Numbered from the stretch's first letter, positions 5,551-50,540 are shown. The stretch: DNA of 64,000 nucleotides from Bdellovibrionota bacterium (GCA_050950765.1 JBMNIF010000002.1:1-64000), one strand, 5' to 3'. Notes: a model not told the origin generated them from the letters alone. A program made the numbers and translations.

Positions 5551-5756
5551 AGTTTGGTGCCGGATTTTGTTTAGGTGCGCTAAGCTAAATTTGGCTGCAG
5601 CACTGGTGCCAGCCTTCACAGCACTGTGCTGGCTGGTTGGTTTGGTGCCACCCTTCAGAAACTCCCTCTCTGAGGGTTTGGAAATTTGGTGCCACCCTTT
5701 AGGTTTGGGTGGGTCTGCTGAATTTGGTGCCACCCTTCAGAAACTCCCTCTGAAAG
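5551..5756. repeat. GGGTGGCACCA-motif cluster (3 exact reverse-strand copies plus degenerate ones)
   Basis: TGGTGCCACCC at 5643, 5687 and 5725, between convergent genes. Confidence 0.85.
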
Positions 5757-5899
5757 TGAGGTAGGGTAGGATAGAGCGTCAGCATTAGTATATTCTCTCT
5801 CTTAAGTTTAGTGGTAAATAGGCATTATTTACCTTCCTTTCTAAAATTTACACGAAAGAGGTGTTTAAACGATTCAAAAAAATATAGAACGACAAGCAC

Positions 5900-7312
5900 T
5901 TAACTTGGAATCCAAAACAAGCTTGCTACTAAAGAGCTTGCAATGATGCCTGCGATATCCGCTAACAGCCCGCAAGCTAAGGCGTGTCTAATTCGAGTTA
6001 TTCCAACGCTTCCAAAATAAACTGCGATGACATAAAATGTAGTTTCCGTGCAACCCATCAAAATTGAAGCAACAAAGGCTTCATATGAATTGGGTGCGTG
6101 ATTGATAATTTCACTTACTACGGCAAAAGCTCCAGTTCCTGAGAGTGGACGTAGTAAAGCAACAGGCAAAGCCTCTGCTGGAAGGCCTATCCAAGCGGTA
6201 TAGGGACCGATCATATCAGTTAATATGGCCATAGCTCCAGAAGCTCTAAACATCCCTACGGCAACGAGAATTGCTACCAAAAACGGGATAATGCGTACTG
6301 CTATATCGAATCCTTGTTTGGCACCATCAGTTACTGCCTCATACATTTTCACACCACGGTAAAAACCGTAAGAGATAATGAGGAGCATTAGTAGCGGCAT
6401 TAGCCAAAATGAGATGACTTCATTCATTAAAAAATCTTTGACTGCGTTCCATGTTGTGCAACTTATTCCTAAAGCACAAATAGGAGAGCTCTGCAATAAA
6501 ACAGCATCGGAAGTTTTAATGAATATTGAAACTAACCTGTATACAAAGATAGTAGCGATAGTTCCTAAGGTTAGCCAACATAGGAAACGCCCTGTTTTTG
6601 TTGGGGTAGTTAATAAATTATCATATTTATTGTGGCGATCATCTTTTTCGCAATCTTCTTGAGGTAAAGTTACGTCTGCATTTTCTGAGGGGGCAGCAAT
6701 AACAGCAGCTGTATATTGCTTATCGCGTGCTGCAAAAAAAATTGCGGCTAAAACGGCAACCAAAGTAGAGATAGATGTCGCAATTAGAGTCGGAAGGAAA
6801 ATGTCAGCAGGTCTTCCACATCCTGCCGCCGCTCTAACACCAATTACTCCAAGGGGTAATAGTGTGACGCTAGAGGTATTGATGGCGAGAAAAAGACACA
6901 TTGCATTTGTAGCTGTGCCCTTTATGGGATTAATCTTGTCTAGCTCTGTCATAGCCTTCAATCCAAAAGGTGTTGCAGCATTGCCCAACCCCAGCATATT
7001 GGCTGATATATTTAATAACATTGCGCTCATAGCGGGATGTCCAGCAGGAATATCGGGAAAAAGTTTCTGAAGATAAGGTCTGACAGCTTCTGCTAAAGAA
7101 TACATCAAACCACCTGCCTCCAAGATCCTTACAAGCCCCAACCAAAGAGCCATAATTCCAATTAGACCGATAGCTAAAGATACGGCACTCTTAGCAGTAG
7201 CAAAGCTAGCATCCACAACTGCTTGCAGATTTCCATTATAAGCACCTAATAAGATTGAAATAATTATAAAGGATACGAAGATAATGTTAATAGCACTGGA
7301 TTTTTTCTTCAT
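5900..7312 (-). CDS. SpmA/SpmB fusion (nucleoside recognition gate domain) membrane protein
   Basis: SpmA motifs NMLGLGNAATPFGLKAM and INTSSVTLLP; SpmB motifs RPLSGTGA and GCTETTFYVIAVYFG. Confidence 0.9.
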   Translation of the reverse strand: MKKKSSAINIIFVSFIIISILLGAYNGNLQAVVDASFATAKSAVSLAIGLIGIMALWLGLVRILEAGGLMYSLAEAVRPYLQKLFPDIPAGHPAMSAMLLNISANMLGLGNAATPFGLKAMTELDKINPIKGTATNAMCLFLAINTSSVTLLPLGVIGVRAAAGCGRPADIFLPTLIATSISTLVAVLAAIFFAARDKQYTAAVIAAPSENADVTLPQEDCEKDDRHNKYDNLLTTPTKTGRFLCWLTLGTIATIFVYRLVSIFIKTSDAVLLQSSPICALGISCTTWNAVKDFLMNEVISFWLMPLLMLLIISYGFYRGVKMYEAVTDGAKQGFDIAVRIIPFLVAILVAVGMFRASGAMAILTDMIGPYTAWIGLPAEALPVALLRPLSGTGAFAVVSEIINHAPNSYEAFVASILMGCTETTFYVIAVYFGSVGITRIRHALACGLLADIAGIIASSLVASLFWIPS

Positions 7313-7410
7313 AGGTAAAGTAATGGAATTTAAAAAAAGAACTTAAAGATCATACACTTAAGGATCATGCAAAATAGGGGAGTATTGCACAAGATAAAAT
7401 ATAATTTTTT

Positions 7411-7566
7411 TCACTGGTGCCACCCTTCAGGGACGACCGGACGGGCTGGAACTGCAAAACGGATCAGCTAGCTCTTCACGGGGATTAAAAAACTGGTGCC
7501 ACCCTTCTTTTCTTTTTCTAGCGCCATCCCCACACTAAAGGGTGGCACCAATCCCAATCTCCAAAC
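7411..7566. repeat. Motif cluster upstream of the HUH nuclease gene, including one 79-bp module
   Basis: TGGTGCCACCC at 7415 and 7494 (79 bp apart); GGGTGGCACCA at 7540. Confidence 0.85.
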
Positions 7567-7698
7567 TTTTTTCATTTTTACCCACAATAAAATCCTAACT
7601 CTAGCGACAATTAGGCGTTAGAATTTGGCAATCCTGCCAAACTAACCGGCAATTCTGCCAATTTATTGATTATTTTTATTTTTATCTGGAGTTGTCTT

Positions 7699-8667
7699 AT
7701 GAGAAATCGTCGAGATAGGAGAAATCCTAATAAAATGGTGGTACATGTCACCAATAGAACATTATCTGGCTTGCCATTTCTAGCACGCCTTTTTATGAAA
7801 TGGATCCTGTTAGGGATTATGGCACGTTGCCAAGAGCACCATCGTGTTAGAATTGCTCATTTTAATTGGATGAGTAACCACTTTCACATGATATTAGTTG
7901 GTGAAGGGAAGCACATCTCTTCATTTATGGGAGAGATGGAAAGTGCAGTTGCACGCGCTATTAAGAAACTAACGCCGCAATATAGGAGAAACGTTTGGGA
8001 TGGACGTTTTAAGGAGCAACGTTTGTTAACTCATAATGATGTTATCGATAAGATAGTCTATATTTATATAAATCCTGTAAAAGCAGGACTCGTTGCACAT
8101 GCTGATGATTGGGAAGGGTGTAGTAGTTTTAGAATGTATAAATCAGGTTCTTTAACAGTGCAGGGTAAGTATACCTCTTCTACTAATTTACGTAAGTTAC
8201 CGCAGAGACTTCATAAAATAAGCGATGCTATTTTATTAAAAATGCTTAATATGTTTCCGCACACTTGTCATGAGCTTAAGATTACCCCTGATGCTTGGAA
8301 GAATTGTTTTGAAGAATCAAAAAACCTTACGTCTGAAGAGATCTTTAAAACAATAATGACAGAGATTTCAAAAAGGGAAGAAGAGATTGCACTTGAAAGG
8401 AAGGGGCATTTTATGGGGATGCGTAAAGTGCAGCAGCAATCGATAAATATTGCGTATGTACCTAAGAAGAAGACGCGTACGCCGTATTTAATTTGTTGGA
8501 TTAAGGAGTTACGGATAAAAGCGATAGCAGAATATAAGGCTTTTTGTGAAGAGTGTAGAAAGGCTTGGAAGAAGTGGAAGCAAGGTGATATTTCAGCTAA
8601 GTTTGTTTATGGGGCATTTCGTCCGAGTATGCCTATTGTAGGTAGGCTTTGCGGGGTGGCGACCTGA
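7699..8667 (+). CDS. RAYT/TnpA_REP-like HUH (Y1) transposase/endonuclease with C-terminal extension
   Basis: VHVTNRT, HUH motif WMSNHFHMIL, VWDGRF, and catalytic-Tyr region YIYINPVKAGLV...DW..CSS, all typical of Y1_Tnp/RAYT proteins. ATG 7699 follows GGAG. Confidence 0.88.
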   Translation: MRNRRDRRNPNKMVVHVTNRTLSGLPFLARLFMKWILLGIMARCQEHHRVRIAHFNWMSNHFHMILVGEGKHISSFMGEMESAVARAIKKLTPQYRRNVWDGRFKEQRLLTHNDVIDKIVYIYINPVKAGLVAHADDWEGCSSFRMYKSGSLTVQGKYTSSTNLRKLPQRLHKISDAILLKMLNMFPHTCHELKITPDAWKNCFEESKNLTSEEIFKTIMTEISKREEEIALERKGHFMGMRKVQQQSINIAYVPKKKTRTPYLICWIKELRIKAIAEYKAFCEECRKAWKKWKQGDISAKFVYGAFRPSMPIVGRLCGVAT

Positions 8668-9318
8668 AAAAAGTAATGTAAAAAAGCTGCTTTTTTGACC
8701 CGTTAATAATATGAAATCTAAATTTCAACAGGGAAGATCTATCTAAAATCTGAAAATAGTCAATTAATTGTAAATTGTAGTATCAAATTTAAGGAAATTT
8801 AAGGTGAGTTAAGCTTGCTGACAGCAGCATAAGCAGAAAAAAGGCTGTCAGAAGAACAAAAACAGCAAAGCAGGTCGTACTGGTGGGTGGCACCAGTGAC
8901 TTATCCGTATTTAATTTGTTGGATTAAGGAGTTACGGATAAAGGCGATAGCAGAACATAAGGCTTTTTGTGAAGAGTGTAGAAAGGCTTGGAAGAAGTGG
9001 AGGCAAGGTGATATTTCAGCCAAGTTTGTTTATGGGGCATTTCGTCCGAGTATGCCTATTGTAGGTAGGCTTTGCGGGGTGGCGACCTGAAAAAAGTAAC
9101 GTAAAAAAGCTGCTTTTTTGACCCGATAATAATATGAAATCTAAATTTCAACGGGGAAGATCTATCTAAAATCTGAAAATAGTCAATTAATTGTAAATTG
9201 TAGTATCAAATTTAAGGAAATTTAAGGTGAGTTAAGCTTGCTGGCAGTAGCATAAGCAGAAAAAAGGCTGTCAGAAGAGCAAAAACAGCAAAGCAGGTCG
9301 TACTGGTGGGTGGCACCA
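8482..9318 (+). repeat. Tandem duplication (period 423 bp) of the nuclease 3' end plus downstream region
   Basis: 8482-8895 is repeated at 8905-9318 with about 10 substitutions; both copies end in GGGTGGCACCA. Confidence 0.95.
8905..9090 (+). pseudogene. Duplicated C-terminal fragment of the HUH nuclease
   Basis: PYLICWIKELR...RLCGVAT is near-identical to the C-terminus of 7699-8667 and lacks the N-terminal domain. Confidence 0.85.
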
Positions 9319-9744
9319 AGGACAAGAAGCAAGCAAGCAAGCAAGACTGGGATATTATCGGTCAATATGGTGGTGTGGTTTTCCACAACTTTTGCCATAT
9401 TTTGTCAAAATACGGTCTTATCGGTAAATTTAGCACAAAAGTTATCCACAGCAAATCACCAAGTTTATACTTGGACTTATCGGTTATTATATCAATAACT
9501 CTTACTGCTTTAAGCTAAAACACTACGTTACGTTAAAAACAATCCCTTTTGAGACCCTCTTTTGGCTTCCAGTGCAGAATGCAGATAAGTTTTTTTCTTT
9601 ATTTAAGCTTAAGAGACCTACTTTTAGCTAAATTTTTCAACCTTCTAACTAACATTCTGATATTATTAGGCTATTAAAACTTTTAAGGTTAAATACTTTG
9701 AATAAATTTCTTAATAAAAAAGGGTGGCACCAGACATAACATAA

Positions 9745-9942
9745 CTAAGCCATTACGTTTAAATTAGTCCCTTTTGATGGATCTTGAGCCATCTCAGGGG
9801 TCGATGAAAGGTTCGAAAATAAAATAGACATCACCTTTTCTAACTGTTCACCTTGACCTTTAATTGCTTTTACTTGAAATTGATTTGAAACCTCTGTCAT
9901 TTTTAGCTCAGAAGATAGTGCTGCAATAGAAGTAATATCCAT
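9745..9942 (-). CDS. Small YjfB-like putative motility protein (65 aa)
   Basis: MDITSIAALSSEL...DPSKGTNLNVMA resembles the YjfB family. GGAGG RBS upstream; a sigma28-like TTAG-N15-GTCGATTT lies ~9987-10013 on the minus strand. Confidence 0.6.
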   Translation of the reverse strand: MDITSIAALSSELKMTEVSNQFQVKAIKGQGEQLEKVMSILFSNLSSTPEMAQDPSKGTNLNVMA

Positions 9943-10526
9943 AAACTTCCTCCTTAAATTCCTTTCTTTTCTTTCTGATAAATAGAAAATCGACACCTTA
10001 GAGGATGAACTAAAGCAAAAAAGAGCATTGTGAAGCGCTTATAACACATTGATTATATTAAGTAAAATATCACTACAAATAAAACATTCAGATATATTAA
10101 ACACTTACAATATAATTCACTAGAATTCTAATTCTAGTGAATTATAGGGGTACCAAATCATTGTTGCCGGTCTTTTGGCTTAAAAAGAGGTAAAAGACAT
10201 TTTATACAGAATCAGCTTAATAACCTAAAAGCACATATGACCACACACCACAGCACCTCAAATATTTCCTAAGCACGAAAACAAAAATGTAGATTTTGAC
10301 CGTTTTTATTACCCATCTATTTTTTGATTTTACTTTTTAGAATAATTTGAAAAAAGTTGCGCCTGAAATTTATGTACGAGCCTAAGTAACAGCCAAGTTG
10401 TTATTTAGTAGTATAAATCTCTTTTTAAACAAACCTATCAGAAAATTTAATACCAGTTATAAGTTATGCCAGCGCATTGCTGCTGACTGTATTATACGTC
10501 ACGTGATATGCACCTGTTTAAAGGGA

Positions 10527-10980
10527 ATTTGGTGCCACCCTTCAGGGAAAAAGCTACTCAAGCATCTTATCAACTAGAGCACGATCTGGTGTACCCTACC
10601 TTGTTTCACAATATTACGTAAAAAATGGGTGGCACCAGTGATATCCGGATTTAAAACTGCAAAAGTTCAATAATATCAAAACATTAGCAAAAGATGGGGT
10701 TTGCTAATTAGAAGGGTAAAAACTCAATACTACCCTTCAGTAAAAGAGAGCAGCTGAATCTTAGAGATTAAATTTACATATCCTTCACAGTGAAAAACTA
10801 AAGAAGTATATTTCTAGCAGTATGCGTAAAAAAGATGGGTGGCACCAGAACAAACCATTACGTAAAAAATGGGTGGCATCAGAACAAACCAGAAACCAGA
10901 GCAAAGCTAGAGAAAAAAAATGGGTGGCACCAGTGACAGCCCCAGCAGACCAGCTTAAAAAATGGGTGGCACCAAGACAA
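10527..10980. repeat. GGGTGGCACCA-motif cluster
   Basis: Reverse copy at 10530; forward copies at 10627, 10837, 10922 and 10964; variant GGGTGGCATCA at 10871. Most forward copies follow an A-run plus T. Confidence 0.85.
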
Positions 10981-10989
10981 AGCCTATAA

Positions 10990-11027
10990 AAAGAGCCTCC
11001 AAGAATACTTCCTGGAGGCCTCTCTTA
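10990..11027 (-). terminator. Probable intrinsic terminator after the histone-like gene
   Basis: GCCTCCA...TGGAGGC stem with a T-run on the minus strand. Confidence 0.5.
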
Positions 11028-11050
11028 ACAACATTTAATTACAACCTGTT

Positions 11051-11599
11051 TTATTTAGCTGTAATCTTTCTCGTAATCTTTCTAACTATACGTCTAGTTG
11101 TAGCAGTTTTAGCAGCTACTTTCTTAGGAGCAGCTTTCTTAGCGACTGTCTTCTTAGCAGCGGCTTTCTTAGGAGCAGCTTTCTTGGCGACTGTCTTCTT
11201 AGCAGCGGCTTTCTTAGGAGCAGCTTTCTTGGCGACTGTCTTCTTAGCAGCTACTTTCTTAGTAGTAGTTTTCTTAGCGACTGTCTTCTTAGCAGCTACT
11301 TTCTTAGGAGCAGCTTTTTTAGCAACTGTCTTCTTAGCAGCTACTTTCTTAGTAGTAGTTTTTTTGGCGACTGTCTTCTTAGCAGCTACTTTCTTAGGAG
11401 CAGCTTTCTTGGCGACTGTCTTCTTAGCAGCGGCTTTCTTAGGAGCAGCTTTTTTGGCAACTGTCGTCTTCTTAGCAGCTACTTTCTTAGCAGTAGCTTT
11501 TTTAGCTGTAGCAGCTTTAGAAACTGTTGACTTCTTCATTGTCTTTCCACTTTTAGCGGCAACTCGCGTTGTCTTCGTAGAAGTTTTACTTATAGCCAT
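11051..11599 (-). CDS. Histone H1-like basic nucleoid protein (Hc2/BpH1-like pentapeptide repeats)
   Basis: More than 20 KK-x-x-x repeats (KKVAA, KKTVA, KKAAP); GGAG RBS upstream. Confidence 0.85.
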   Translation of the reverse strand: MAISKTSTKTTRVAAKSGKTMKKSTVSKAATAKKATAKKVAAKKTTVAKKAAPKKAAAKKTVAKKAAPKKVAAKKTVAKKTTTKKVAAKKTVAKKAAPKKVAAKKTVAKKTTTKKVAAKKTVAKKAAPKKAAAKKTVAKKAAPKKAAAKKTVAKKAAPKKVAAKTATTRRIVRKITRKITAK

Positions 11600-12362
11600 G
11601 ATTTTTTCTCCAAAAATTAGCGTAGTATAATAACCTCTATTTTACGCCTCTTTTTATTTATTAATCTGCGAATCCTCTCGCAGTTATTAAAAACATGAAA
11701 TGAACATAATACCACTTGCGTTCTTCTTCATGTAAAAAAAACAACACTGAGACTTTTTAATTTCTGTGACCGCATGCCACTGTCTCAGATATTTTCTTTA
11801 TCCTGCCATCACATCGCGATGTTTGCAAGATATTAACTTTGATGTTCGTTATAAAAAAAGTTTTCATAAATTTTGCGAACTCATCTTTTAAGATACACTC
11901 CAACGCCACCCCTTCGTGTTTATATTTTTAAAAATTACAAAAAACACCATCAATAAGACCATGCAAAAAAGCCTATAAAATAAGCTTCCCATTAAAGACA
12001 TTCAAAACAAGACGCTAAAAAAATGACACTAGGATCTGAAACAAGAACTAAAGAAACAGATGATGTTTTTCTTTGAGTGAGACCTTAAAAATTCCTTCCC
12101 TAAAAATTTTATCTTCAAAAAAAAATTACTCTCTCGACATTCCCTCCTCTATTACAATTATTACAATCTTCCTTTCCGATCTCAGGTTGGATTAAAAGAT
12201 CCTACAAAATTCTCTTTTGAGTAAGTAACTCTTCTTCCTATTTTTTACTTCATTAGATTGTAACCAAGAACGATCTTTTAACTTATCTAGATTCTCTTAA
12301 GGCTTCCAATTACAACACTAACATATTGTAATTATTGAATATATTATTCCTTAATGGTGATT

Positions 12363-12389
12363 TAATTAATTATTTAATTCTGCCGATAA
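12363..12389 (+). promoter_or_regulatory. Putative sigma28 (FliA)-type promoter
   Basis: TAAT-N15-GCCGATAA (exact -10 consensus at 12382-12389) upstream of an HDOD gene; a second TAAA-N16-ACCGATAT lies at 12407-12434. Confidence 0.45.
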
Positions 12390-17597: not shown

Positions 17598-18443
17598 ATG
17601 ATAATTCGACTACTTTTTATAGTATTATCATTTTATATCTTCGCATTTTCGGAAGTCTCAGCTGATGATACTGTCAGGGCACGTTTTACCCCTAATGCTA
17701 CACGTTACAAACACACCTTAACAGTTGCTCCGTTAAAACTTGCTAATGGAAGTAGTTTAACACTTGTCTCTCCTGCTCATTTAACAGGTCTAACCAAAAA
17801 GCTCTCTATCTTGCTTGAGCGGACACATCAGCAGTATACGAAAATTTTTGGAGAGATCCCGACGCTGACCACTTCAATTCGACTAATTGATGAAAGAGAA
17901 TTCTTTAAAGTAACAGCGGCACCTGAATGGACAAATGCACTTTTCTATAAAAATGAGATCATTATTCCCATCCCTGAAAATGTTGCTGAGATAGACCTTG
18001 AAAATATTTCCCGCGCGATAAAGCATGAATATACTCACGCTGTGGTGCACGCCTTATCTGCCGGACGGTGCCCTGGTTGGCTCGATGAGGGGCTGGCGCA
18101 ATGGTCTGAGGGACCTGAAAATCCGGCTTTACAATTAGCTTTGCTTGAACTCTTAAAAAAGAATCGTTACATCCCTTTTGATAAATTACAGGGAGGTTTT
18201 ACCAAATTGGATGTCGAATTAGTCCCTGCTGCTTATGCACAATCTCTTTACGTGACAAAAGAGCTTCTGACTCAACACGGATTTTCAGCTTTAAGACGAT
18301 TCTTCAAAGTGTTACGTCACGGCTATAGCAAAGACGCTGCATTTATTGCGGGGTTTAATATGAATGAAGGCTTAATAGAAAACATCGCCATTCGCAGAAT
18401 CAAAGCACGCTTAAATCAACGTCAAATCTCTGCTGCACAGTAA
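17598..18443 (+). CDS. Peptidase MA-like zincin protein
   Basis: HEYTH plus PGWLDEGLA and AYAQS; signal peptide. Confidence 0.8.
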   Translation: MIIRLLFIVLSFYIFAFSEVSADDTVRARFTPNATRYKHTLTVAPLKLANGSSLTLVSPAHLTGLTKKLSILLERTHQQYTKIFGEIPTLTTSIRLIDEREFFKVTAAPEWTNALFYKNEIIIPIPENVAEIDLENISRAIKHEYTHAVVHALSAGRCPGWLDEGLAQWSEGPENPALQLALLELLKKNRYIPFDKLQGGFTKLDVELVPAAYAQSLYVTKELLTQHGFSALRRFFKVLRHGYSKDAAFIAGFNMNEGLIENIAIRRIKARLNQRQISAAQ

Positions 18444-18504
18444 ATCAGAGATCATCATCCGGATCTTCCCTAGCTTTTTACCCCCATAGAGGATCGTCAC
18501 TGAA

Positions 18505-19675
18505 GGGTGGCACCAGATTTTTAACCCCCGTCAAGATCTAGCTAGCTCGTTTCGCTGTATCAGCCCGTCCTAGCGTCCCTGAAGGGTGGCACCAGTGATA
18601 AAGCCAACTAATCCGCCCAAACTGGTGGGTGGCACCAAATTCATCACCTGCTTGCTAGAAGCTTTTTGCTTAAAAAGCCTATTAGAATCAAACTATTATG
18701 ACATAACTAGTTGTTTAGGAGCCTCTAGCTTCAGCTTTCAATAAAGAAGGGTGGCACCAGTGATAACCCCGCCCTGCTGTCCCTGAAGGGTGGCACCAGA
18801 TTTTTAACCCCCGTCAAGATCTAGCTAGCTCGTTTCGCTGTATCAGCCCGTCCTAGCGTCCCTGAAGGGTGGCACCAGTGATAAAGCCAACTAATCCGCC
18901 CAAACTGGTGGGTGGCACCAAATTCATCCCAAATTCATCACCTGCTTACTGAGAAGCTTTTTGCTTAAAAAGTCTATTAAAATCAAACTATTATGACATA
19001 ACTAGTTGTTTAGGAGCCTCTAGCTTCAGCCTTCAATAAAGAAGGGTGGCACCAGATTTTTAACCCCCGTCAAGATCTAGCTAGCTCGTTTCGCTGTATC
19101 AGCCCGTCCTAGCGTCCCTGAAGGGTGGCACCAGTGATAAAGCCAACTAATCCGCCCAAACTGGTGGGTGGCACCAAATTCATCACCTGCTTGCTGAGAG
19201 CTTTTTGCTTAAAAAGTCTATTAAAATCAAATTATTATGACGTAACTAGCTGTTTAAAAACCTCCAACTTCACCAACTTCAGCCTTCAATAAAGAAGGGT
19301 GGCACCAGATTTTTACCAGCTTCAGCCTTCAATAAAAAAGGGTGGCACCAAATTTTCCAAATTTTCAGCCTCTTTTTAGTTGCAGCCCGTTCCCGTCAAG
19401 ACCCAACCAATTCGCTTTTCAGTTCAGCCCGTTCAGCCGTCCCTGAAGGGTGGCACCAAATTCATCACCTCCGTCAAGACCCAACCAATTCGCTTTTTAG
19501 TTGCAACCCGTCCAGCCGTCCCTGAAGGGTGGCACCAGTTTTTTAACCCCCGTCCAGATCTAGCTAGCTCGTTTCGCTGTATCAGCCCGCCCAATCGTCC
19601 CTGAAGGGTGGCACCAGTTTTTTAACACTAAATTTTAACCCCAACTTCAGCCTTCAATAAAAAAGGGTGGCACCA
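18505..19675 (+). repeat. Large head-to-tail array of 16 GGGTGGCACCA motifs with mosaic modules
   Basis: Motif starts at 18505, 18584, 18627, 18749, 18788, 18867, 18910, 19044, 19123, 19166, 19297, 19340, 19448, 19527, 19606 and 19665; lies between convergent genes. Confidence 0.95.
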
Positions 19676-19699
19676 AATTTTCAGCCCTATCAGATCTCT

Positions 19700-20182
19700 T
19701 TACGGAGTCGTTTTTTCTAATAAGACCACAGCGAAGGCAGCCATCCCCTCTTCTCTACCTAGAAAACCGAGATGTTCCGTTGTTGTTGCTTTAATTCCGC
19801 AAACAGATTCATCAATTAAAAGAGCTTCAGCTACGGAAAGTTTTATAGCTTGCTTAAACGGTGCAATGCGGGGTTTTTGAGCAATAATAGTGCAATCTAA
19901 ATTTACAATCTCCCAACCGTCAGCGTGTACTCTTTCCCAAAGCCGCCTCAAAAGCTCTTTACTGTCTGCATTAAGATATTGAGCATCCGTATCGGGAAAA
20001 TGCTCTCCAATATCCCCTCCACCTACCGCACCTAAGATAGCATCCATAATAGCATGAGTTAAAACATCTGCATCAGAATGCCCGATAAGTCCATCTATGT
20101 CAGAAAGTTTAACACCTCCCAATATTAAAGCTCTATCATGCGCAAATTGATGAACATCTATACCGTGCCCAATACGGAACAT
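19700..20182 (-). CDS. ispF: 2-C-methyl-D-erythritol 2,4-cyclodiphosphate synthase
   Basis: RIGHGIDVH, GHSDADV, DIGEHFPD and KATTTEHLGF. Confidence 0.97.
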   Translation of the reverse strand: MFRIGHGIDVHQFAHDRALILGGVKLSDIDGLIGHSDADVLTHAIMDAILGAVGGGDIGEHFPDTDAQYLNADSKELLRRLWERVHADGWEIVNLDCTIIAQKPRIAPFKQAIKLSVAEALLIDESVCGIKATTTEHLGFLGREEGMAAFAVVLLEKTTP

Positions 20183-37600: not shown

Positions 37601-37604
37601 AGGT

Positions 37605-37812
37605 TAAAAATTTGGTGCCACCCTTCAGGGACAGCAGGACGGGCTGATACTACAAAGCGAAGTCAGCTAGATCTTTACGAGGGTTAAAAATTTGGTGCCA
37701 CCCACTAGGGACAGCAGGACGGGCTGCAATGCAGAGAGGAAAATTTGGTGCCACCCACCAGTGCTAAAAGACTCTAAAACTACGATAGATAATAATATCA
37801 AGATGTTAGCAA
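37605..37812. repeat. Motif array, left part (interrupted by the IS)
   Basis: TGGTGCCACCC at 37613, 37693 and 37746. Confidence 0.9.
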
Positions 37813-37904
37813 CCTAAATTCCGCAATTTTTATCTTTTCTCCATTCCAGAAATAAGCCACCGTATTTTTTATTGATATTTTAGTTAGTTATATATTTTTC
37901 TATA

Positions 37905-37932
37905 TTGACATTTCCTGTTTGTATGGTATGAT
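37905..37932 (+). promoter_or_regulatory. Transposase sigma70 promoter
   Basis: TTGACA-N16-TATGAT with an extended TG. Confidence 0.65.
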
Positions 37933-37960
37933 TGCCCTATACATATTAGGGAGGTTTTTT

Positions 37961-39574
37961 ATGAAAAAAATAACTAAAAAAGTTGACTTACCAGATAGGC
38001 AAATTGCTCGTAAGAAAAACAAAAATGGGACTACTTATATCTATTACAGGATGAACTTTCGTCGTGAAAACGGAGAGCCTACGTTTGATGAAATAGGTAT
38101 AGGGAAGCTAGATGAAAGCGGTAAGAAATTAATTCCTAATAGAAATTACTATGATTTGTTTCCAGATGATTCTAATAGATATGTTATTAGCAATAAATCT
38201 TTTGGTCTTACTTATGTTTTAAATAAGATTGTAAAAGATTTAAGGTTAGACAAGACATTGCTTTCAATTTTTGGAAATGACACATACGAGATTTTAACTT
38301 TAGCGTTTTATATTCTAGCAAATGGAAATGTAGTATCACATGCTTCAAGTTGGATAGATGATAGTGTCTTACCATATGAAATTTCTGAATTAACAAGTCA
38401 AAAAATAAGTCGTCTTTTTGAACGTATTGACTACGAGAAAAGACTTAATTTTTTTAAGAAATGGACGAAGCGATATTTAGCTCAAGAATGTTGGTATTAT
38501 GACGTAACTTCCATATCTTCTTATAGTAAAAAAATAAGCATATTGGAGTTTGGCTATAATAGGGATATGGATAAATTGCCGCAAATAAATATAGGTATGT
38601 GCTACGGCTCTACAACGAAGCTTCCTTTATTCTATCAAGTTTATAATGGCAGCATTACAGATAAGACATATTTTAGTTTTCTTTTAAGAGACTTTCCATT
38701 TATTAGTCTTAATAATCGTATTAACCTTGTTACGGATCAAGGTTTTGTGACGCAAGATAATTTAGCGGAAGTAGCAAATGAAGAAGGGCAAAAGTTTGGA
38801 CTACTTTGTCCTTTGCCACTATATTGGAATGACGCTAAAAGAATATTAGAAAATCACACTGCACTTATTAAGCAAGATGCTAATTATATAAAAGGAACCT
38901 CTACTTTTGGTTGTTCTGTAATAGATACTGTTATGGGACAACCTGTAAAGATTTATGTTTATTACAATATGGGAAAGGCGCCATATGAGATAGTTCAATT
39001 TTACGAGAAAATTTCTAGAATGGAAGAAGAGTTAGAAGAACTGAAAAAATTAAAATACTCTTTGCTGGATCGTAAAAAATATAGGAAATATTTTGATATT
39101 AAAATAAATGAAGATGGTTTCACTTATGAAAAAAAATCAGAAGCTATAGATGAATACTTGAGAAATTGTGGCTTCTTAATTTTGATTGGTATTGGTTGTG
39201 ATTCAAATCCGAGTGAAGCACTTTTTCGTTATCGTCAAAAAGATGTAATTGAAAAACAATTTTTCCAGCTAAAAAATGAAATTGATTTTAGAAGACTTAA
39301 AACACATAATCTTCAAACCACAGAAGGAAAACTTTTTGTTGGATTTTTAGCTCTTATACTTAGAAGTTATATTCTTAATTTACTTAAAAATGATACAAGG
39401 CAAAAAAAGTTTAATATACCTGATGTCATTAAAGAGCTTCAAAAAATTAAAGTTATAGAAACTAAAAATGGCAGTAAATTAATGGTTCCGTTAACAAAAA
39501 AACAAAAGGATATTTTGAAAATTTTCAATATTGAAGAAGATGACTTTCTAAAAAGTATTTTTAAGAAAAAGTAA
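37961..39574 (+). CDS. IS1634-family DDE transposase
   Basis: YYDVTSISSY, GYNRD...LPQIN, VTDQGF and YRQKDVIEKQFFQLK; GGAGG RBS before ATG 37961. Confidence 0.92.
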   Translation: MKKITKKVDLPDRQIARKKNKNGTTYIYYRMNFRRENGEPTFDEIGIGKLDESGKKLIPNRNYYDLFPDDSNRYVISNKSFGLTYVLNKIVKDLRLDKTLLSIFGNDTYEILTLAFYILANGNVVSHASSWIDDSVLPYEISELTSQKISRLFERIDYEKRLNFFKKWTKRYLAQECWYYDVTSISSYSKKISILEFGYNRDMDKLPQINIGMCYGSTTKLPLFYQVYNGSITDKTYFSFLLRDFPFISLNNRINLVTDQGFVTQDNLAEVANEEGQKFGLLCPLPLYWNDAKRILENHTALIKQDANYIKGTSTFGCSVIDTVMGQPVKIYVYYNMGKAPYEIVQFYEKISRMEEELEELKKLKYSLLDRKKYRKYFDIKINEDGFTYEKKSEAIDEYLRNCGFLILIGIGCDSNPSEALFRYRQKDVIEKQFFQLKNEIDFRRLKTHNLQTTEGKLFVGFLALILRSYILNLLKNDTRQKKFNIPDVIKELQKIKVIETKNGSKLMVPLTKKQKDILKIFNIEEDDFLKSIFKKK

Positions 39575-39640
39575 GATTATACCGCTCGAAAGCTACCTTT
39601 AAAAACACGTTTGTATGGTATAATTTCGCGGGAATTCAGG

Positions 39641-40112
39641 TTAGCAAAAGCTTCGGGCTTGGCGAATTTGGTGCCACCCACCAGTAAGACGGGATCTGGC
39701 AGATTTGGCAGGGCTTGGATCTGGTGCCACCCACTAGAGACAGCAGAGCGGGCGCAACTTGCAGATCAAATCGGTTAGATCTCTACGGAATTTACTACCA
39801 CTCGCTAGGGACAATTGAGCGGGCTGATACGGCAAAATAAATCAGCTAGATCTATACGGAGGAGGTTAAATTTTGGTGCCACCCACCAGTGCTAAAAGAC
39901 TCTAAAATTACGATAGCTAATAATATCAAGATGTTAGCAAAAGCTTCGGGCTTGGCGAATTTGGTGCCACCCACTAGGGACAGCAGGACGGGCTGCAATG
40001 CAGAGAGGGATCAGCTAGATCTCTACGAGGGTTAAAAATTTGGTGCCACCCACTAGAGACAATTGAGCGGGCTGATACGGCAAAATAAATCAGCTAGATC
40101 TATACGGAGGAA
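39641..40112. repeat. Motif array, right part
   Basis: TGGTGCCACCC at 39669, 39722, 39874, 39962 and 40041, with 88- and 79-bp modules. Confidence 0.9.
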
Positions 40113-40115
40113 AAA

Positions 40116-42716: not shown

Positions 42717-42748
42717 AGTGTGGTATGTAGTTTAATTTATGTAGAGAG

Positions 42749-43759
42749 ATGAATCTTCTTTTCCAAAATGCTTTACATAATATTCCGCAGGCGGTACCAC
42801 CGATCTGGTTTATGCGTCAAGCCGGTCGCTATCAAAAAAGCTACCAAAAGGTGCGCGAACGTTATTCATTTGTTCAGATCTGCAAAACTCCTGAACTAGC
42901 AGCTCAGGTAGCACTCTCCCCTATTTTAGAATTTGATCTGGATGTAGCTATCCTTTTTAGTGACATCCTTTTCCCATTAGAAGCGTTAGGTATGTCATTA
43001 AATTACGCTGCTACGGGAGCGCCGCACCTTTCTCCTCTCCTCAAAGATAAAAGTAGCGTTGCAAATCTTCGCTCACCACAAGAAGCCATACCACTACTCT
43101 CTTTTCAGCACGAAGCCTTAACAGCTACTAGATCCCTATTACCAAACAACAAGAGTTTAATCGGTTTTATTGGAGGTCCCTTTACCCTCTTTGCTTATGC
43201 CGTTAAAGGGCATCCTCTGCAAGGTTTTGCGCCAACACCAGATCTGTTAACGCTTTTTCAACCTTTTTGTGAAAAGATACTCCCTCTTTTACGCGCTTCG
43301 ATCTTAGAACAGATCAGTAGTTCTGCAGAAATCGTTATGATTTTTGACACCTCTGCCGGTATGCTTAATAGGGAGCTGTATTTAGAGTATGTTCTTCCAC
43401 AACTCAAGGAATTAGTTGATGGTATCTCTGATAAGGTGGCTTATTATGCGCGGGGATTAGATCAAGTGCTTTTTGACGATCTCTTTTTTCAATCTCTAGC
43501 CGGAATTGCTTTAGATTCTAGATCTGATCTCGCTCGATATTTTAATAGAAAGGGGTTTATACAAGGTAATTTTAATGAAAAACACCTCCTCACCGATTCG
43601 ACGCAATTAACACAGCAAGTTTTTAACTATCTTAATTCTATACGAGAACTTCCTTATCAATCTAACTGGGTTTGTAGCCTCGGTCACGGCGTACTCCCTA
43701 CTACTCCCGAAGCCAATGTGCATAAGTTTATAGAGCTTGTTAGGGGATATTTTAAATAA
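42749..43759 (+). CDS. hemE: Uroporphyrinogen decarboxylase
   Basis: PIWFMRQAGRY, FSDIL and LGHGVLP. Confidence 0.95.
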   Translation: MNLLFQNALHNIPQAVPPIWFMRQAGRYQKSYQKVRERYSFVQICKTPELAAQVALSPILEFDLDVAILFSDILFPLEALGMSLNYAATGAPHLSPLLKDKSSVANLRSPQEAIPLLSFQHEALTATRSLLPNNKSLIGFIGGPFTLFAYAVKGHPLQGFAPTPDLLTLFQPFCEKILPLLRASILEQISSSAEIVMIFDTSAGMLNRELYLEYVLPQLKELVDGISDKVAYYARGLDQVLFDDLFFQSLAGIALDSRSDLARYFNRKGFIQGNFNEKHLLTDSTQLTQQVFNYLNSIRELPYQSNWVCSLGHGVLPTTPEANVHKFIELVRGYFK

Positions 43760-43864
43760 TAAAACACAACAATCTTTTTCACTTAAAAACAGAGTCTCTA
43801 ATAAATTTTATATCTTGCAATGCCGATATTAAAGAACGTGATAGTTATTACAATGAAAAAATAA

Positions 43865-45550: not shown

Positions 45551-45568
45551 TGAAACCGTATTAAGGAA

Positions 45569-47062: not shown

Positions 47063-47094
47063 AAAGAACTCCTAAAAATTTTTACATAAAGAAA

Positions 47095-47583
47095 CTACGC
47101 TATCGCCTTAAAACAGACCTTTAGAACCTCAACTCCCAACTCTCCTTTCGGAGTGTTGTATGTAACCCAGTCTCCCTCTTTTGCCTTTGCATTAATCAAA
47201 GCAGAACCTAACGGAGAAAGCCATGATATTTTTCCATTTAACACATCTACTTCATCAGATCCTACAATGGAATAAGTTTTTTTATTATCATCCTCGTCAC
47301 ACAAGGTAACGGTTGCACCGAACTGAACATAATCGGAGGTCACCGTTAACGGATCAATCACAAAAGCTTCATCTATGTGTTTTGAAAGGAACTCAATGCG
47401 TTTATCTATCTCTCTAAGTTTTTTCTTACCGTAGATATAATCTCCGTTCTCTGAACGATCGCCGTTTGAAGCAGCCCACGCTACCTGTTGAGTAACTTGC
47501 GGTCTCTCATCATGCTTGAGGGTATACAGCTCCTGATTTAATCTAGCTAGACCGGCTGGTGTTATGTAATTCTTTTGTGCCAT
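47095..47583 (-). CDS. greB: Transcription elongation factor GreB
   Basis: WAASNGDRSENGDYIYGKKKLREID. Confidence 0.95.
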   Translation of the reverse strand: MAQKNYITPAGLARLNQELYTLKHDERPQVTQQVAWAASNGDRSENGDYIYGKKKLREIDKRIEFLSKHIDEAFVIDPLTVTSDYVQFGATVTLCDEDDNKKTYSIVGSDEVDVLNGKISWLSPLGSALINAKAKEGDWVTYNTPKGELGVEVLKVCFKAIA

Positions 47584-47688
47584 AGTTATTCTTAACAGAC
47601 TTAACAGAGACTCAAGTTTTTGATAATAATTCAAGCTGAGCAGTGTGTCGAGATAAGAACTCTTAAGAAAGTTCACAAAAGGGGAGAA

Positions 47689-48990
47689 ATGAACCATAAA
47701 AAAAACGATTGCGCTATTTTACATTACGATAATCACGAAATTGAATTACCGATCGTCGAAGGTAGTATGGGCGAACGTGCCATTGATATCTCGCGATTAC
47801 GTGCTGAAACCGGTTTAATTACACTGGATAACGGTTATGCCAATACGGGGTCTTGCAAATCAGCTATAACTTTCGTTGATGGTGAGAAAGGGATCTTACG
47901 TTATCGTGGCATCCCGATTGAAGAGTTAGCAGAGAGATCAACCTTTATTGAGGTCTGTTATTTACTGATCTACGGCAAACTTCCCACAACTCTCGAGCTC
48001 TATGAATTTCGTAAAAAAATCGGGCGTTACGCCTTGATTCATGAAGATATGAAGAACTTCTTCAATCAGTTTCATGGAGAAGCTCATCCTATGGCGATTT
48101 TAAGCTCTATGGTCTGTTCTCTTTCGGCGTATCATCCGGAGTTATTAAAATCAAATCAATCCCCCGCAGATAGAGATGAAACAATTACGCATCTACTTTC
48201 AAAGGTGCGCGTTTTGAGTGCCTTTGCTTATAAACGTTCTATCGGACAAACTTTCATCTACCCACATATGAAGTACGATTATATAGAGAACTTTCTTTAT
48301 ATGATGTTTGCCACACCGATAGAAGATTACAAGATAGACCCTGTTGTAAAACGTGCCTTAGATCTACTTTTTATTATTCATGCAGACCATGAACAAAACT
48401 GCTCAACCTCAACAGTGCGCATGGTAGGATCTGCTAGAACCAATCTTTTTGCCTCTGTTTCCGCTGGAATTTGCGCCTTATGGGGAGAGCTGCACGGTGG
48501 TGCCAATCAAGCTGTAATTGAGATGTTAGAAAACATCTACAATAGTGGAGAGGGCTACAAAAAATTTATTGAAAAAGCAAAAGATAAAAATGATCCTTTT
48601 AAATTGATGGGTTTCGGACATCGCGTCTATAAGACTTATGATCCGCGTGCAAAAATTATAAAGAAAACTGCTGATGATGTTTTAAAGAAACTTAATATTT
48701 CAGATCCAATTCTTGATCTAGCACAAGAGCTGGAAGAAGTAGCGTTGCGCGACGATTTCTTTATAGAGAGACATCTCTACCCCAACGTTGATTTCTACTC
48801 CGGTATTATTTACCGCGCTATCGGAATACCAACTAATGACTTTACTGTAATGTTTGCGTTAGGACGTTTACCTGGTTGGATTGCGCAATGGAAAGAGATG
48901 GTAGAGCAAGGTGAAACAAAACTTTATCGCCCACGTCAGATTTATATCGGAGAAACTGAGCAACACTACATCCCAATCGATGCCCGTTAA
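47689..48990 (+). CDS. gltA: Citrate synthase (type II)
   Basis: HADHEQNCST, HGGANQ, GFGHRVYK and YPNVDFYSG. Confidence 0.97.
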   Translation: MNHKKNDCAILHYDNHEIELPIVEGSMGERAIDISRLRAETGLITLDNGYANTGSCKSAITFVDGEKGILRYRGIPIEELAERSTFIEVCYLLIYGKLPTTLELYEFRKKIGRYALIHEDMKNFFNQFHGEAHPMAILSSMVCSLSAYHPELLKSNQSPADRDETITHLLSKVRVLSAFAYKRSIGQTFIYPHMKYDYIENFLYMMFATPIEDYKIDPVVKRALDLLFIIHADHEQNCSTSTVRMVGSARTNLFASVSAGICALWGELHGGANQAVIEMLENIYNSGEGYKKFIEKAKDKNDPFKLMGFGHRVYKTYDPRAKIIKKTADDVLKKLNISDPILDLAQELEEVALRDDFFIERHLYPNVDFYSGIIYRAIGIPTNDFTVMFALGRLPGWIAQWKEMVEQGETKLYRPRQIYIGETEQHYIPIDAR

Positions 48991-49205
48991 TAAAAAAATA
49001 AAATGCTTTTAAAAAGGGTTATTTTTACTTAAATTAAGTAAAGTAAGATTATTTTATGTAAAAATTCTACAATATTATCAATACCTTCCCCGTAATAGCA
49101 CCAAATTATAATTTTTAGCATAACTTATTAATGTAGGGGAATTTTGAGCCTATGTAACGGTTCTAGAAAATGTTCCTGTTCTTTCACAAATCATTAGAAA
49201 TGTAG

Positions 49206-49904
49206 GTGAAAAATGTTGATCCTGTCTGTGGCGTTTTGCCTCGTCGCTTTTGCCGGTGCCGCTTACGGCGTTTTCCTGTTTTGGGGATTCGACATTACCC
49301 AACTCTGGTTCTCGGAGTTCTTCTCGGAGTTCTCTTGGGAAACTTTCAAAGCCAATGTTCAAGGACTGCACCCTTCCGCTTTGGAGACGGTCTACCAATA
49401 CCGTTCCGAAATGGTTGCACTCGTTGTTATCATGGCTTTGTTTCTGAAGGCTGTCGGCGCTTTTAGCGCGACTAATACGGACTGCTCTTTTAGGGTTATC
49501 GTCCTTAGGGTGTTATCTGCGCTGGCGGAGGGAGGTATTTTCGGGATCATTTTAATGCTCTTCGAAAGCCGTTTCCCTGGGGCTATCGCCCGATTGGGGC
49601 ACCGCCCCTTATCGCCTGCCTTGTTATTGGAGTAGTTTTACTACTATCCAAGTTCAAAATTAGCTATGCATTGCTAATAATATACCTACTTACAATCGGC
49701 TGGGCGATATTTACTAGAAGCTCTGGTCAAACTATTACACTGTCGATATGGCCCACGGTATACCTGAGTGCACTTGTACCACTTTGTGCGCTCGGAACTC
49801 TTCAAGCGCTCTACAGAGACAAGTCAGACGGCGAACTCTATGTTATGAGTTGGGTACGTCTGTACGGACTGGCTTCATTAGCGGCTATCGTGCTTCTTGT
49901 ATGA
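49206..49904 (+). pseudogene. Frameshifted paralog of the membrane protein at 50665-51489
   Basis: Shares FDxTQLWF, FSWETFKA, FGIILMLFESRFPGAIA and RxYGL with 50665-51489; split into ORFs 49213-49635 and 49671-49904. Confidence 0.7.
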
Positions 49905-50084
49905 AAATATAAGAAGCGTCGTTAAAGTCATCTGAGAGGTCGCACCAAGAAGGGGGAAAAAGGTTTTTACTACAAAGGGCTCAATTTTCCCCCCTCCTTT
50001 TCTTCAGATTAACTAAGCACCCCACCCCAAACTAAAACCCCTCTCAAAGCCTAATTGATCTACTTTTCAGCATCAGCCAGCCTA

Positions 50085-50540
50085 CTTTTTTAACCTCCGT
50101 AGAAATCTAGCCGATCCCGTTCTGCTGTTGCAGCCAGCCCTGCTGTCCCTGAAGGGTGGCACCAAATTTTTGACCTTCGTGAAAACCTAACCGATTCGTT
50201 TTGTAGTGACAGCCCGTTCAATCGTCCCTGAAGGGTGGCACCAAATTCGCCAAATGCTAAGCTTTTGCTAACGTCTTGATATTATTGGCTATCCTAATTT
50301 CAGAGTCTTGTAGCACTGGTGGGTGGCACCAAATTTCCGCTGCTGTCCCTGAAGGGTGGCACCAAATTTTCTGGTGGGTGGCACCAAATTTTCCCTCGTG
50401 AAAACCTAACCAACTTGCTTTTTAATATCAGCCCGCTCAATCGTCCCTAGCGAGTGGTAGTAAATTCCGTAGAAATCTAGCCGATCCCGTTCTGCAGTTG
50501 CAGCCACCCCAATCATCCCTAAAGGGTGATGGTAAATTTC
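50085..50540 (+). repeat. Motif array between the paralogous membrane-protein genes
   Basis: GGGTGGCACCA at 50154, 50233, 50321, 50354 and 50376; degenerate copies at ~50452 and ~50524; 79- and 88-bp modules. Confidence 0.9.

Follow-up and report, generated by a model that had tools for sequence, protein, structure and literature searches.

The subject of this report is a stretch of 64,000 nt from an uncultured Bdellovibrionota bacterium (GCA_050950765.1, JBMNIF010000002.1:1-64000; hereafter the window), which forms the start of contig C2 in a genome of 2.64 Mb, 40% GC and five contigs. A gene for a Y1 HUH enzyme lies at 7699-8667 on the forward strand, accompanied by copies of an 11-nt word, GGGTGGCACCA, which is also found in intergenic arrays. 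The initial annotation of the window had described a gene like the repetitive extragenic palindromic (REP)-associated tyrosine transposases (RAYTs), set between direct copies of this word. Both the gene and the copies at 7540 and 8885 (forward) are confirmed, and the window holds 43 exact copies, as had been counted, compared with a mean of 0.02 and a maximum of 1 in 100 dinucleotide shuffles. Three features come in addition to that annotation: an inverted copy of the word at 7494-7504, the presence of the gene in six copies in the genome, and a 5'-truncated copy of the unit at 8905-9318. The features of the locus are listed below, with variable columns referring to an alignment of the six copies.

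7413..7491, minus strand: outer left motif copy with a module of 79-nt period, found upstream of all six gene copies, with module insertions and deletions
7492..7504, minus strand: left terminal inverted repeat, ACTGGTGCCACCC, with the motif reversed inside it (7494-7504); 0 of 13 columns vary
7505..7539, plus strand: unit-specific spacer of 35 nt, the loop of the left hairpin; ~7 blastn hits in the genome; 8 of 36 columns vary
7540..7550, plus strand: forward motif copy of the left end, pointing the same way as the right-end copy; none of its 11 columns varies
7551-7698: 5' leader; 7 of 149 columns vary
7699..8667, plus strand: Y1 HUH enzyme gene, 322 aa, with HFH at 61-63, the catalytic-type Tyr121 in YIYINP (121-126) and a long C-terminal extension; 18 of 969 columns of the open reading frame (ORF) vary
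8668-8884: 3' region; 15 of 217 columns vary
8885..8897, plus strand: right terminal inverted repeat, GGGTGGCACCAGT, inside a small hairpin, CTGGTG-GGTGG-CACCAG
8905..9318, plus strand: 5'-truncated unit copy with the last 62 codons and the 3' region, 97.6% identical to 8482-8895, with its own motif at 9308-9318

By its sequence matches and its modelled fold, the product belongs to the Y1 HUH enzymes. The protein passes the cut-off of the Pfam family Y1_Tnp (PF01797; 29.8 bits, cut-off 23), while the NCBIfam models REP_Tyr_transpos (67.4 bits, under the cut-off of 80, with the match limited to residues 12-139) and transpos_IS200 (18.3 bits, cut-off 55) are not reached. A profile of 86 homologues has E. 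coli TnpA_REP (4ER8) as its top solved match (E 3.9e-10, positions 1-144), followed by ISDra2 and IS200/IS608-type transposases. The AlphaFold2 model of the 322-aa protein (pLDDT 94.1, pTM 0.92) has 4er8_A as its best Foldseek match (E 7.4e-07, target TM 0.73), and VIA returns the same structure with Z 13.7 and a root-mean-square deviation of 2.7 over 154 aligned residues, compared with Z 8.1 for IS608. The His and Tyr motif residues align with those of 4ER8. H61, H63, W100, Y121 and N125 do not vary across the 86-sequence alignment, in which the conservation of P126 is 90% or more. The protein reads NHFH and YIYINP at its two motifs, the distance from the HUH motif to the tyrosine is 60 residues, the core aligns to 4ER8 without a 55-residue insert, and a conserved Ser-Ser pair (S142, S143) is located shortly past the core. 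The Y-x-x-x-N-P form of the tyrosine motif assigns the enzyme to class 2 of the TnpA_Y1 scheme, on the RAYT side, as given in the available part of PMC6006769.

The core is followed by a tail of ~180 residues that is conserved across the homologues. The Pfam scan assigns no family to this tail, including Bac_DnaA_C or a helix-turn-helix (HTH) domain, at E up to 0.01. The whole-model searches with Foldseek and VIA, which are dominated by the N-terminal core, give no fold for it, and the language-model look-alikes of the C-terminal part are unnamed clusters alone, all with scores below 0.9. The family has 2,743 cluster representatives at E 0.001 or better and 554 at 1e-10 or better, and most of the best 150 of the 2,743 are proteins of 315-345 aa that match end to end. 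The suggestion of a long-tailed RAYT subfamily in the initial annotation stands as to a RAYT-related HUH/Y1 protein with a long extra C-terminal part, but the gene is not a solitary one kept for repeat maintenance.

Six full copies of the gene are present in the genome, differing at 0-14 nucleotides, and they account for all six genome-wide matches to Y1_Tnp. Five of the proteins are identical, and one has three residue differences. Among the 18 variable nucleotide sites of the ORFs, 15 are synonymous, and the three replacements all fall in that one copy, which indicates that the protein was kept intact by purifying selection while the copies diverged. In an independent metagenome run, the contig of the unit has a depth of 318, compared with ~57 for its unique flanks (a ratio of ~5.6), and the close metagenome homologues lie on contigs of 1-4 kb, like collapsed repeats. 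The unit was found in 20 public runs of 15 studies of digester, bioreactor and landfill metagenomes; these runs are kept as contigs that break at the arrays, and the listed joints have sides of fewer than 30-40 letters inside repeats. In one run, a strain is seen whose flanking genes diverge by up to ~3%. Judged from its sequence, the gene is one of six copies of a putatively mobile unit of ~1.4 kb (7492-8897), similar to an insertion sequence (IS), and not a single-copy domesticated RAYT.

The unit has well-defined ends. The segments 7492-7504 and 8885-8897 form a perfect 13-bp inverted repeat that is common to the six copies, and on the right the similarity of the six copies stops at ...ACTGGTGGGTGGCACCAG (8885-8897). 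Further to the left, all six copies have one or more modules of 79-nt period in reverse orientation. Among the array modules, the one that separates the two left-end sites (7415-7504) occurs most often, with ~340 blastn hits for the query 7425-7500. As single-stranded DNA, the left inverted pair (7494-7550) is predicted to form a 13-bp stem of -13.6 and -15.5 kcal/mol on the two strands (z -4.4 and -4.6), and the right end a 7-pair hairpin of -7.7 kcal/mol (z -2.9). The moving unit could be either the segment bounded by the inverted repeat (7492-8897) or a cassette between direct sites (7540-8895). The latter is how the initial annotation had described the gene, and direct copies do exist at 7540 and 8885. 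Yet the inverted copy at 7494 and the spacer of 35 nt are likewise common to all six units, so that the direct-site cassette is just one of two boundary readings. Four nested 5'-truncated fragments of the unit, with starts equivalent to 8482, 8647, 8744 and 8830, all retain the right end, and each is located directly downstream of a full copy. The motif at 9308-9318 is followed by a short run of the tetranucleotide GCAA (9319-9345).

The word that marks these ends is strongly over-represented in the genome. It occurs 943 times (522 forward, 421 reverse), compared with 0.3-20 copies expected from Markov models of orders 1 to 5, the order-5 figure being already inflated by the repeat itself, and the control word that reads GGGTGGCACCA backwards has 0 occurrences. 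The consensus around the core is C-T-G-[A/G]-[A/T]-GGGTGGCACCA-[A/G]-A-T-T-T; the common sequence ends ~5 bases upstream and ~15 bases downstream of the word, with ~5 semi-conserved bases on each side. The 5' flank is most often CTGAA (307 copies), CTGGT (178) or AAGAA (128), the first 3' base is A in 569 copies and G in 356, and the 16-mer CTGAAGGGTGGCACCA, which flanks the gene, occurs 307 times. An A follows the site in 64%, 61% and 52% of the copies with the three commonest 5' flanks. This near-independent assortment of the 5' and 3' variants suggests that modules meet within the constant word.

The word is also far better preserved than the DNA between its copies. Besides the 943 exact copies, 140 copies have one mismatch, which corresponds to a divergence of ~1.2% per site; another 413 differ at two positions, and many of these are expected by chance. 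The cargo of the 12 largest spacer families diverges by 12.9% from the family consensus, and at that rate just 22% of the 11-mers would be predicted to be intact. The 11-mer is therefore ~ten times better conserved than the spacers.

The copies are almost purely intergenic, as a crude gene map of greedy, non-overlapping ORFs of at least 100 aa (78-84% of each contig) shows. These ORFs hold at most 56 of the 943 copies, most of them in ORFs of 100-145 aa that are themselves made of repeats. When six longer motif-holding ORFs were checked, the copies in four were found in a false N-terminal extension. One copy each is present in three confirmed genes, of GH3-family, MotA-type and FabD-type. The placement of the window copies outside real genes also holds, the copy at 10964 lying only in the over-extended start of an ORF (10962-11630) of the crude map. 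In the FabD-type acyltransferase gene, which lies outside the window (C2:1180975-1181913), a reverse copy is located nine codons before the stop, and insertion of an array may have replaced the original 3' end of the gene.

At a gap of up to 400 bp, the copies group in 129 clusters with a joint span of 64 kb, or 2.4% of the genome. Of these, 106 are multi-copy with up to 28 copies each, and 89 of the 106 have all copies on a single strand. The genes flanking the 129 clusters are convergent in 41 cases, divergent in 16 and tandem in 72 (41 vs 16, binomial p = 0.0013), in line with the convergent placement proposed in the initial annotation and visible in the window arrays 5643-5735, 18505-19675 and 37613-40051. 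Relative to tandem flanking genes, the clusters divide 38 to 23 between the two orientations (p = 0.07). Outside the window, a region of C2 at ~500-800 kb has 1 motif copy, whereas most other 50-kb bins have several; this motif-poor region of ~300 kb surrounds the minimum of the cumulative GC skew, which is the probable replication origin.

Between consecutive copies on the same strand there are 792 segments, which fall into 316 families at ~75% identity or more, including 202 singletons. The commonest periods are 79, 53, 88, 43 and 32 nt. The order of the modules is shuffled: members of the largest family (family 0, 61 members) are followed by 30 different families across 49 adjacencies. Local higher-order tandem repeats are also present, such as the strings of modules 29-50-59 and 16-63-42, each found three times. 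The window array 37613-40051 is divided in two by an ORF of 551 aa (37919-39574, plus strand) whose product has a DDE_Tnp_1 (IS4-type) domain, and a second DDE transposase ORF is located beside an array at C1:178406-179917, with the motif directly before it. The arrays thus seem to be landing pads for unrelated insertion sequences too. A CRISPR-like array was also considered and is ruled out, since the constant part has just 11-21 nt and 590 of the 792 spacers belong to multi-member families.

The word was also searched in 30 genomes of the same order. In 28 of these it has 0-5 copies (2 in G001, of the same family), in G025 it has 16 and in G019 37. Full-length homologues of the enzyme (24-34% identity, tail included) are present in 27 of the 30 genomes, often in several copies. 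Related inverted repeats of the "CTGGTGCC.CCC" type flank homologues with 25-42% identity in Bdellovibrionota genomes and in metagenomes. Such a repeat brackets the gene at 10 of 17 genome loci with usable flanks, 43-120 bp upstream and ~170-300 bp downstream of the ORF, and a repeat of the same type is present at 13 of 26 metagenome loci with usable flanks. The inverted-repeat words are given below by genome (G) or locus (L), and TGGAGCCACCC is a further example.

This genome and G025: CTGGTGCCACCC
G028: CTGGTGCGTCCCA
G013: TGGTCCGTCCCA
G007: CTGGTACATACCACC
G015: CTGGTGCCAGGC
G020: GTACGTCCCA
G030: CTGGAGGGGGCC
L021: AGGTGCCA
L022: AAGTACCA

The words are specific to their genomes. When four of them were each searched in five genomes, three were confined to the genome with the cognate gene (29, 11 and 4 copies), and the fourth has 5 copies in its own genome and 12 in G013, where a near-identical word is present. 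Several homologues (in G007, G015 and G030) have 2-4 tandem copies of the word at one end, which look like incipient arrays. The number of word copies per gene is roughly 2-4 elsewhere, compared with 943 copies for six genes here. The presence of related inverted repeats across the homologue loci shows that the word belongs to the element family-wide. At eight metagenome loci from related samples (L049-L056), a homologue with 38% identity has the motifs NHYHMVL and YIYSNP, and no inverted repeat of the CTGG...CC type is found within 350 bp upstream or 450 bp downstream; these loci may represent a domesticated or differently bounded branch of the family.

A scan of reference genomes with the single protein gave no close relatives, and a scan with the alignment gave 8 loci, all of them by record title in metagenome-assembled genomes of Bdellovibrionota type. 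Plasmids gave no tblastn match to the enzyme. The 16-mer CTGAAGGGTGGCACCA has at least 97 loci over the genomes of 185,579 species; among the matches listed, there is one each in unrelated taxa, at chance level, and no second array-bearing genome. In the literature, the matches listed for GGGTGGCACCA are all primer or construct sequences by title, and a search for 'Bdellovibrio' with 'repetitive extragenic palindromic' gave only matches that are irrelevant by title.

HUH Y1 enzymes cleave a single DNA strand through a 5'-phosphotyrosine link and then rejoin it. Based on the observations above, GGGTGGCACCA is probably the core of the terminal recognition site of an IS-like element whose product is a nuclease-ligase of the Y1 HUH type (single tyrosine, single-stranded DNA) from the RAYT/TIRYT branch, and the 129 arrays would be gene-less derivatives of the ends of this element. 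A unit of an array would consist of the site and 20-130 nt of cargo, the commonest unit being the element's own left subterminal module. Acting in trans from the six copies, the enzyme would recognise the 11-mer and a few flanking bases, Tyr121 would nick one strand at or beside the site, and the nicked end would be rejoined to another copy of the site. The segment between two direct sites could then leave as a single-stranded circle carrying one site, and the reverse reaction would insert this circle at any other site. Where such insertions recur at existing sites and sites recombine unequally, arrays of one orientation with a shuffled module order would result, and unequal recombination would also add the local higher-order repeats. 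The site would be regenerated or selected and would stay exact while the cargo decays, and arrays would persist where harm is small, chiefly between gene ends.

Such a model would account for the single orientation of the arrays, the shuffled order, the independence of the left and right flanks and the exact site beside decaying cargo, as well as for the fragments anchored at the right end and the location of the element always within arrays. The binding and cutting of the site by the enzyme, the strand and position of the cut, the circular intermediate and the mobilisation of the arrays are steps that we infer. By analogy, the action of the enzyme on the site is favoured by its core being closest, in sequence and in fold, to TnpA_REP bound to a REP hairpin, as TnpA_REP binds and cleaves single-stranded REP DNA according to the available text of Ton-Hoang et al. 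(PMC3333891). A further proposal, which we make tentatively and which has perhaps one chance among several, is that the enzyme is a site-specific single-strand 'cassette shuffler' that uses an 11-nt, mostly hairpin-less site as both donor and target, and moves any DNA between two direct sites, its own gene included. If this is true, the 129 arrays would document an ongoing exchange of integron-like or NIME-like kind, driven by an HUH enzyme, with a mode of action and a type of substrate that are not described for any RAYT, TIRYT or IS200 enzyme.

Several observations weigh against the element-end origin of the arrays or against the proposed action of the enzyme on them. The recognition targets of known Y1 enzymes are hairpins, and here most copies of the site are hairpin-less. 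The longer hairpin form TGGTG-GGTGG-CACCA is found in only 215 of the 943 copies, and for the commonest form, CCCTGAAGGGTGGCACCAG, the predicted folding does not exceed that of shuffled sequences (z +0.6); the initial annotation had given GGTG-N-CACC as the sole palindrome, which is correct for most copies but not for these 215. No replication-strand bias is seen when single-strand clusters are sorted by the sign of the GC skew (59 vs 53, p = 0.64), unlike the prediction of an IS608-like mode that targets the lagging-strand template. Identical cargo is rare at unlinked arrays (10 groups across clusters, with 561 of the 629 spacers of at least 40 nt distinct), suggesting that most of the expansion is old or came mainly from local duplication. 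Strict co-variation of protein and flanking word, for which the initial annotation had proposed a test, was not found: protein distance and word distance are not significantly correlated (Mantel r = -0.06, p = 0.39, n = 8 pairs), and the G025 protein is only 27% identical to this one, yet has the same word.

The relative G019 adds a further difficulty. This genome (1.8 Mb, from another family of the same order, 92% complete, 20 contigs) has 37 intergenic copies of the 11-mer, and neither a single-sequence search nor the 86-sequence profile finds a Y1 homologue in it (0 of 7 scored candidates passed). Its copies (loci L029-L033) have the prefix AAAACA and low-complexity spacers (GCCAGCC..., AGAAGAAG...). 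The element may have been lost from the assembly or may have failed to be binned. The G019 case weighs against a simple dependence between enzyme and repeat. The location of all six gene copies inside arrays fits equally well with an element that targets pre-existing arrays. The proposed model also leaves unexplained the recognition of a hairpin-less site, the absent strand bias and the roles of the inverted repeat and the long tail, for which double-strand recognition by the tail is a possibility.

Among the alternatives, it has to be considered that the arrays are older and of host or other origin, for example as binding or recombination sites of another protein, as proposed for the Neisseria dRS3 sites and NIME, and that the Y1 element merely inserts into them, its 'ends' being partly captured target. 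This is unlikely in our judgement. It would explain why six of six copies are inside arrays, why G019 has word copies and no Y1 gene was found there, and why DDE-type insertion sequences are found inside one array (37919-39574) and adjoining another (C1:178406-179917); in the available text of PMC3333891, E. coli REP numbers likewise differ little with or without tnpA_REP. On the other hand, in array-less genomes the related inverted repeats are spaced equally from the ORF of the homologues, which argues that the word travels with the gene. The low counts in relatives (2 in G001, at most 5 in 28 of 30) argue that the arrays are no ancestral host feature, and the commonest array module is a piece of the element's left end. 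It is somewhat less likely again that the site came from the element's ends and that the arrays were grown and shuffled by the host alone, through slippage, unequal crossing-over and gene conversion, with the enzyme today moving its own gene only. The higher-order tandem repeats (29-50-59, 16-63-42 and a three-module A-B-C unit, each three times, the last at 18505-19350), the few identical cargo units shared by distant arrays and the absent strand bias are in keeping with it. Against this, an 11-nt identity is very short for homologous recombination, and local duplication fails to explain 129 dispersed loci or the 30 right-hand neighbours of one module family. Furthermore, the site does not decay as fast as the cargo, although that would be expected if neither selection nor a sequence-specific process acted on it.

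It is very improbable, in our view, that the word has nothing to do with transposition and is a signal under host selection, for example for DNA uptake, for the binding of a regulator or as part of a terminator. The intergenic location, the convergent excess (41 vs 16) and the strong conservation of the 11-mer would be expected of such a signal, and in one array two terminator-like matches use the site as the 3' half of the stem. The sequence TGGCAC inside the site presumably resembles the -24 box of sigma-54 promoters, but no TTGC box at sigma-54 spacing was seen in the sequences read. Terminator-like sites are not enriched (2 vs 1.5 expected) and the arrays have no Rfam match, and neither clusters of up to 28 copies spaced 20-130 nt apart nor the identity of the word with the ends of a six-copy mobile gene would be expected of a host signal. 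The consensus scans as a whole are not persuasive: the region 18400-19750 gives the above terminator-like matches and 4 promoter-like matches (1.2 expected), and the region 7400-9000 gives 6 promoter-like (4.4 expected) and 1 terminator-like (1.1 expected). In the Rfam search the window has two tRNAs only.

The gene side of the system is closest to the TIRYT or 'TIRtron' elements, and the architecture of the arrays is closest to the Neisseria intergenic mosaic elements (NIME). In the TIRYT elements, as described in the available part of Di Nocera, De Gregorio and Rocco 2013 (PMC3733652), RAYT-like genes have inverted repeats whose words form small repeat families; for the most part they coincide with subclass 2.1 of the TnpA_Y1 enzymes in Quentin et al. 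2018 (PMC6006769, in the part available). The likeness extends to a RAYT-like Y1 gene whose borders are terminal inverted repeats rather than REP hairpins, to an inverted-repeat word that is a repeated family occurring single, paired or grouped, and to the Y---NP tyrosine motif, the NH[YF]H-type HUH motif and the Ser-Ser after the core (S142, S143). The word here, GGGTGGCA, departs from the majority consensus GGGGWSAS at position 4, and the inverted repeats of the family compare with this consensus as GGGACGCA, GGGACGGA and GGTATGTA; in the available text of PMC3733652, other TIRYT inverted repeats are unrelated to GGGGWSAS, so that the mismatch does not exclude membership. The protein is longer (322 aa, compared with a median of 238 in Table 1 of PMC6006769), its six near-identical copies differ from a mean of 1.9 copies at 49% identity, and Pfam finds no Bac_DnaA_C or HTH (HTH_23, HTH_28-like) in its tail. 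Arrays of one orientation with 943 site copies and more than 300 spacer families are not described in the available part of PMC3733652.

Long-tailed TnpA_Y1 subclasses without REPs are on record in PMC6006769, as far as its available text goes. Subclass 2.3 has 325-aa, multi-copy members and no REP, but it has core inserts of 10 and 55 residues, YVDLNP and NHYH, unlike the enzyme described here. On the features of Table 1 in the available part of that paper, on which the comparison rests rather than on subclass HMMs, the enzyme fits neither subclass 2.1 nor 2.3.

The RAYT/TnpA_REP systems provide the closest solved sequence and fold (4ER8), and have in common with the present case the Y---NP motif, the intergenic repeats and a gene flanked by the most abundant short word of the genome (307 copies of the 16-mer, 943 of the 11-mer). 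For comparison, flanking words of RAYTs average 57 copies in group 2 and 140 in group 3 in the available part of PMC5581495. However, six copies and four end fragments are found here instead of a single copy, the REP_Tyr_transpos score is under its cut-off, and the enzyme has an additional C-terminal part of 180 residues. The word has 11-13 nt, with no GTAG foot and no imperfect palindrome of 30-40 nt (REPs have 20-40 nt), and the arrays are mostly direct, not inverted pairs. The view of the initial annotation that the architecture differs from that of REPs, bacterial interspersed mosaic elements (BIME) and REP doublets (REPIN) by its short constant site, mostly direct orientation and variable cargo is thus upheld.

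In NIME, dRS3 sites flank RS units, and the proposal has been made that a recombinase of transposase type acts on the site, according to the available text of PMC1797815. From the same text, the similarities are a short conserved site between more than 100 families of ~20-150-bp units, long intergenic arrays and the landing of other insertion sequences in them. The dRS3 site is an inverted repeat of 20 bp whose centre varies, whereas the site here is a constant, asymmetric 11-mer, and the enzyme linked to dRS3 in that text is a phage-encoded transposase or recombinase, not a Y1 HUH enzyme. NIME are also of another phylum, with no sequence relation. The IS200/IS605 elements (IS608, ISDra2) have the Y1 HUH catalytic core and multiple copies of high identity in common with this unit, and the model borrowed here is their mode of insertion, which takes place beside a specific short sequence and duplicates no target. 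They differ in having Y---Q instead of Y---NP, distinct subterminal hairpins instead of terminal inverted repeats, and an enzyme of ~150 aa, half the length of the 322 aa found here; the present element has no tnpB and no replication-strand bias. In the open-access text, no description of this family in Bdellovibrionota was found, nor of a Y1-linked site amplified to mosaic direct arrays on such a scale.

The spread of short intergenic repeats such as REP, BIME and NIME, and the formation of mosaic arrays, are still debated. To our knowledge, the link between RAYT enzymes and their repeats rests on very few tested cases. The present genome is an unusually clear natural case, in which a mobile enzyme gene is intact in six copies and its own ends are the repeat. 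It is an extreme, gene-less expansion of the element's end motif, where the relatives represent the state 'before', with few end copies, and this genome the state 'after', with 943 copies in 2.4% of its DNA. With so short and constant a site, cleavage and strand transfer could be assayed simply. Should the enzyme act on the hairpin-less site, the known substrate range of HUH Y1 enzymes would be wider, which would be of interest for HUH-tags and for tools that insert single-stranded DNA. If it does not, a well-documented new insertion-sequence family of the Bdellovibrionota with terminal inverted repeats remains.

The other copies of the word in the window are found in the following places.

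5643..5735, minus strand: array of 3 copies between the convergent genes of an IclR-type regulator and a Gate-domain membrane protein
9722..10974: scattered exact copies at 9722 (plus), 10530 (minus), 10627 (plus), 10837 (plus), 10922 (plus) and 10964 (plus)
18505..19675, plus strand: array of 16 direct copies between a peptidase gene (plus) and ispF (minus)
37613..37756, minus strand: array of 3 copies downstream of a PBP1-type gene, the left part of the split array
39669..40051, minus strand: array of 5 copies, the right part of the same array
50154..50386, plus strand: array of 5 direct copies with short spacers and periods of 79, 88, 33 and 22

The array at 18505-19675 has periods of 79, 43 and ~122-134 nt, and its A-B-C unit (18505-19350) is followed by other modules. 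The array at 50154-50386 is flanked by two ORFs, 49213-49635 and 50665-51489, both without Pfam matches. The cargo families 4, 5, 9, 10, 12, 13, 18, 20, 21, 23 and 24 have a common core like TTGCTAACATCYTGATATTATTAGC, with the dyad arms GCTAA and TTAGC 13 nt apart, as in the example at 18650-18700. A sigma-70 scan flags the region of this core three times in the big array of the window (TTAAAA-18-TATTAT), and the core may act as another functional site, or the cassettes may carry it as an outward promoter. A copy of the word with one mismatch, GGGTGGCATCA, is located at 10871-10881, within the small array at 10837-10974.

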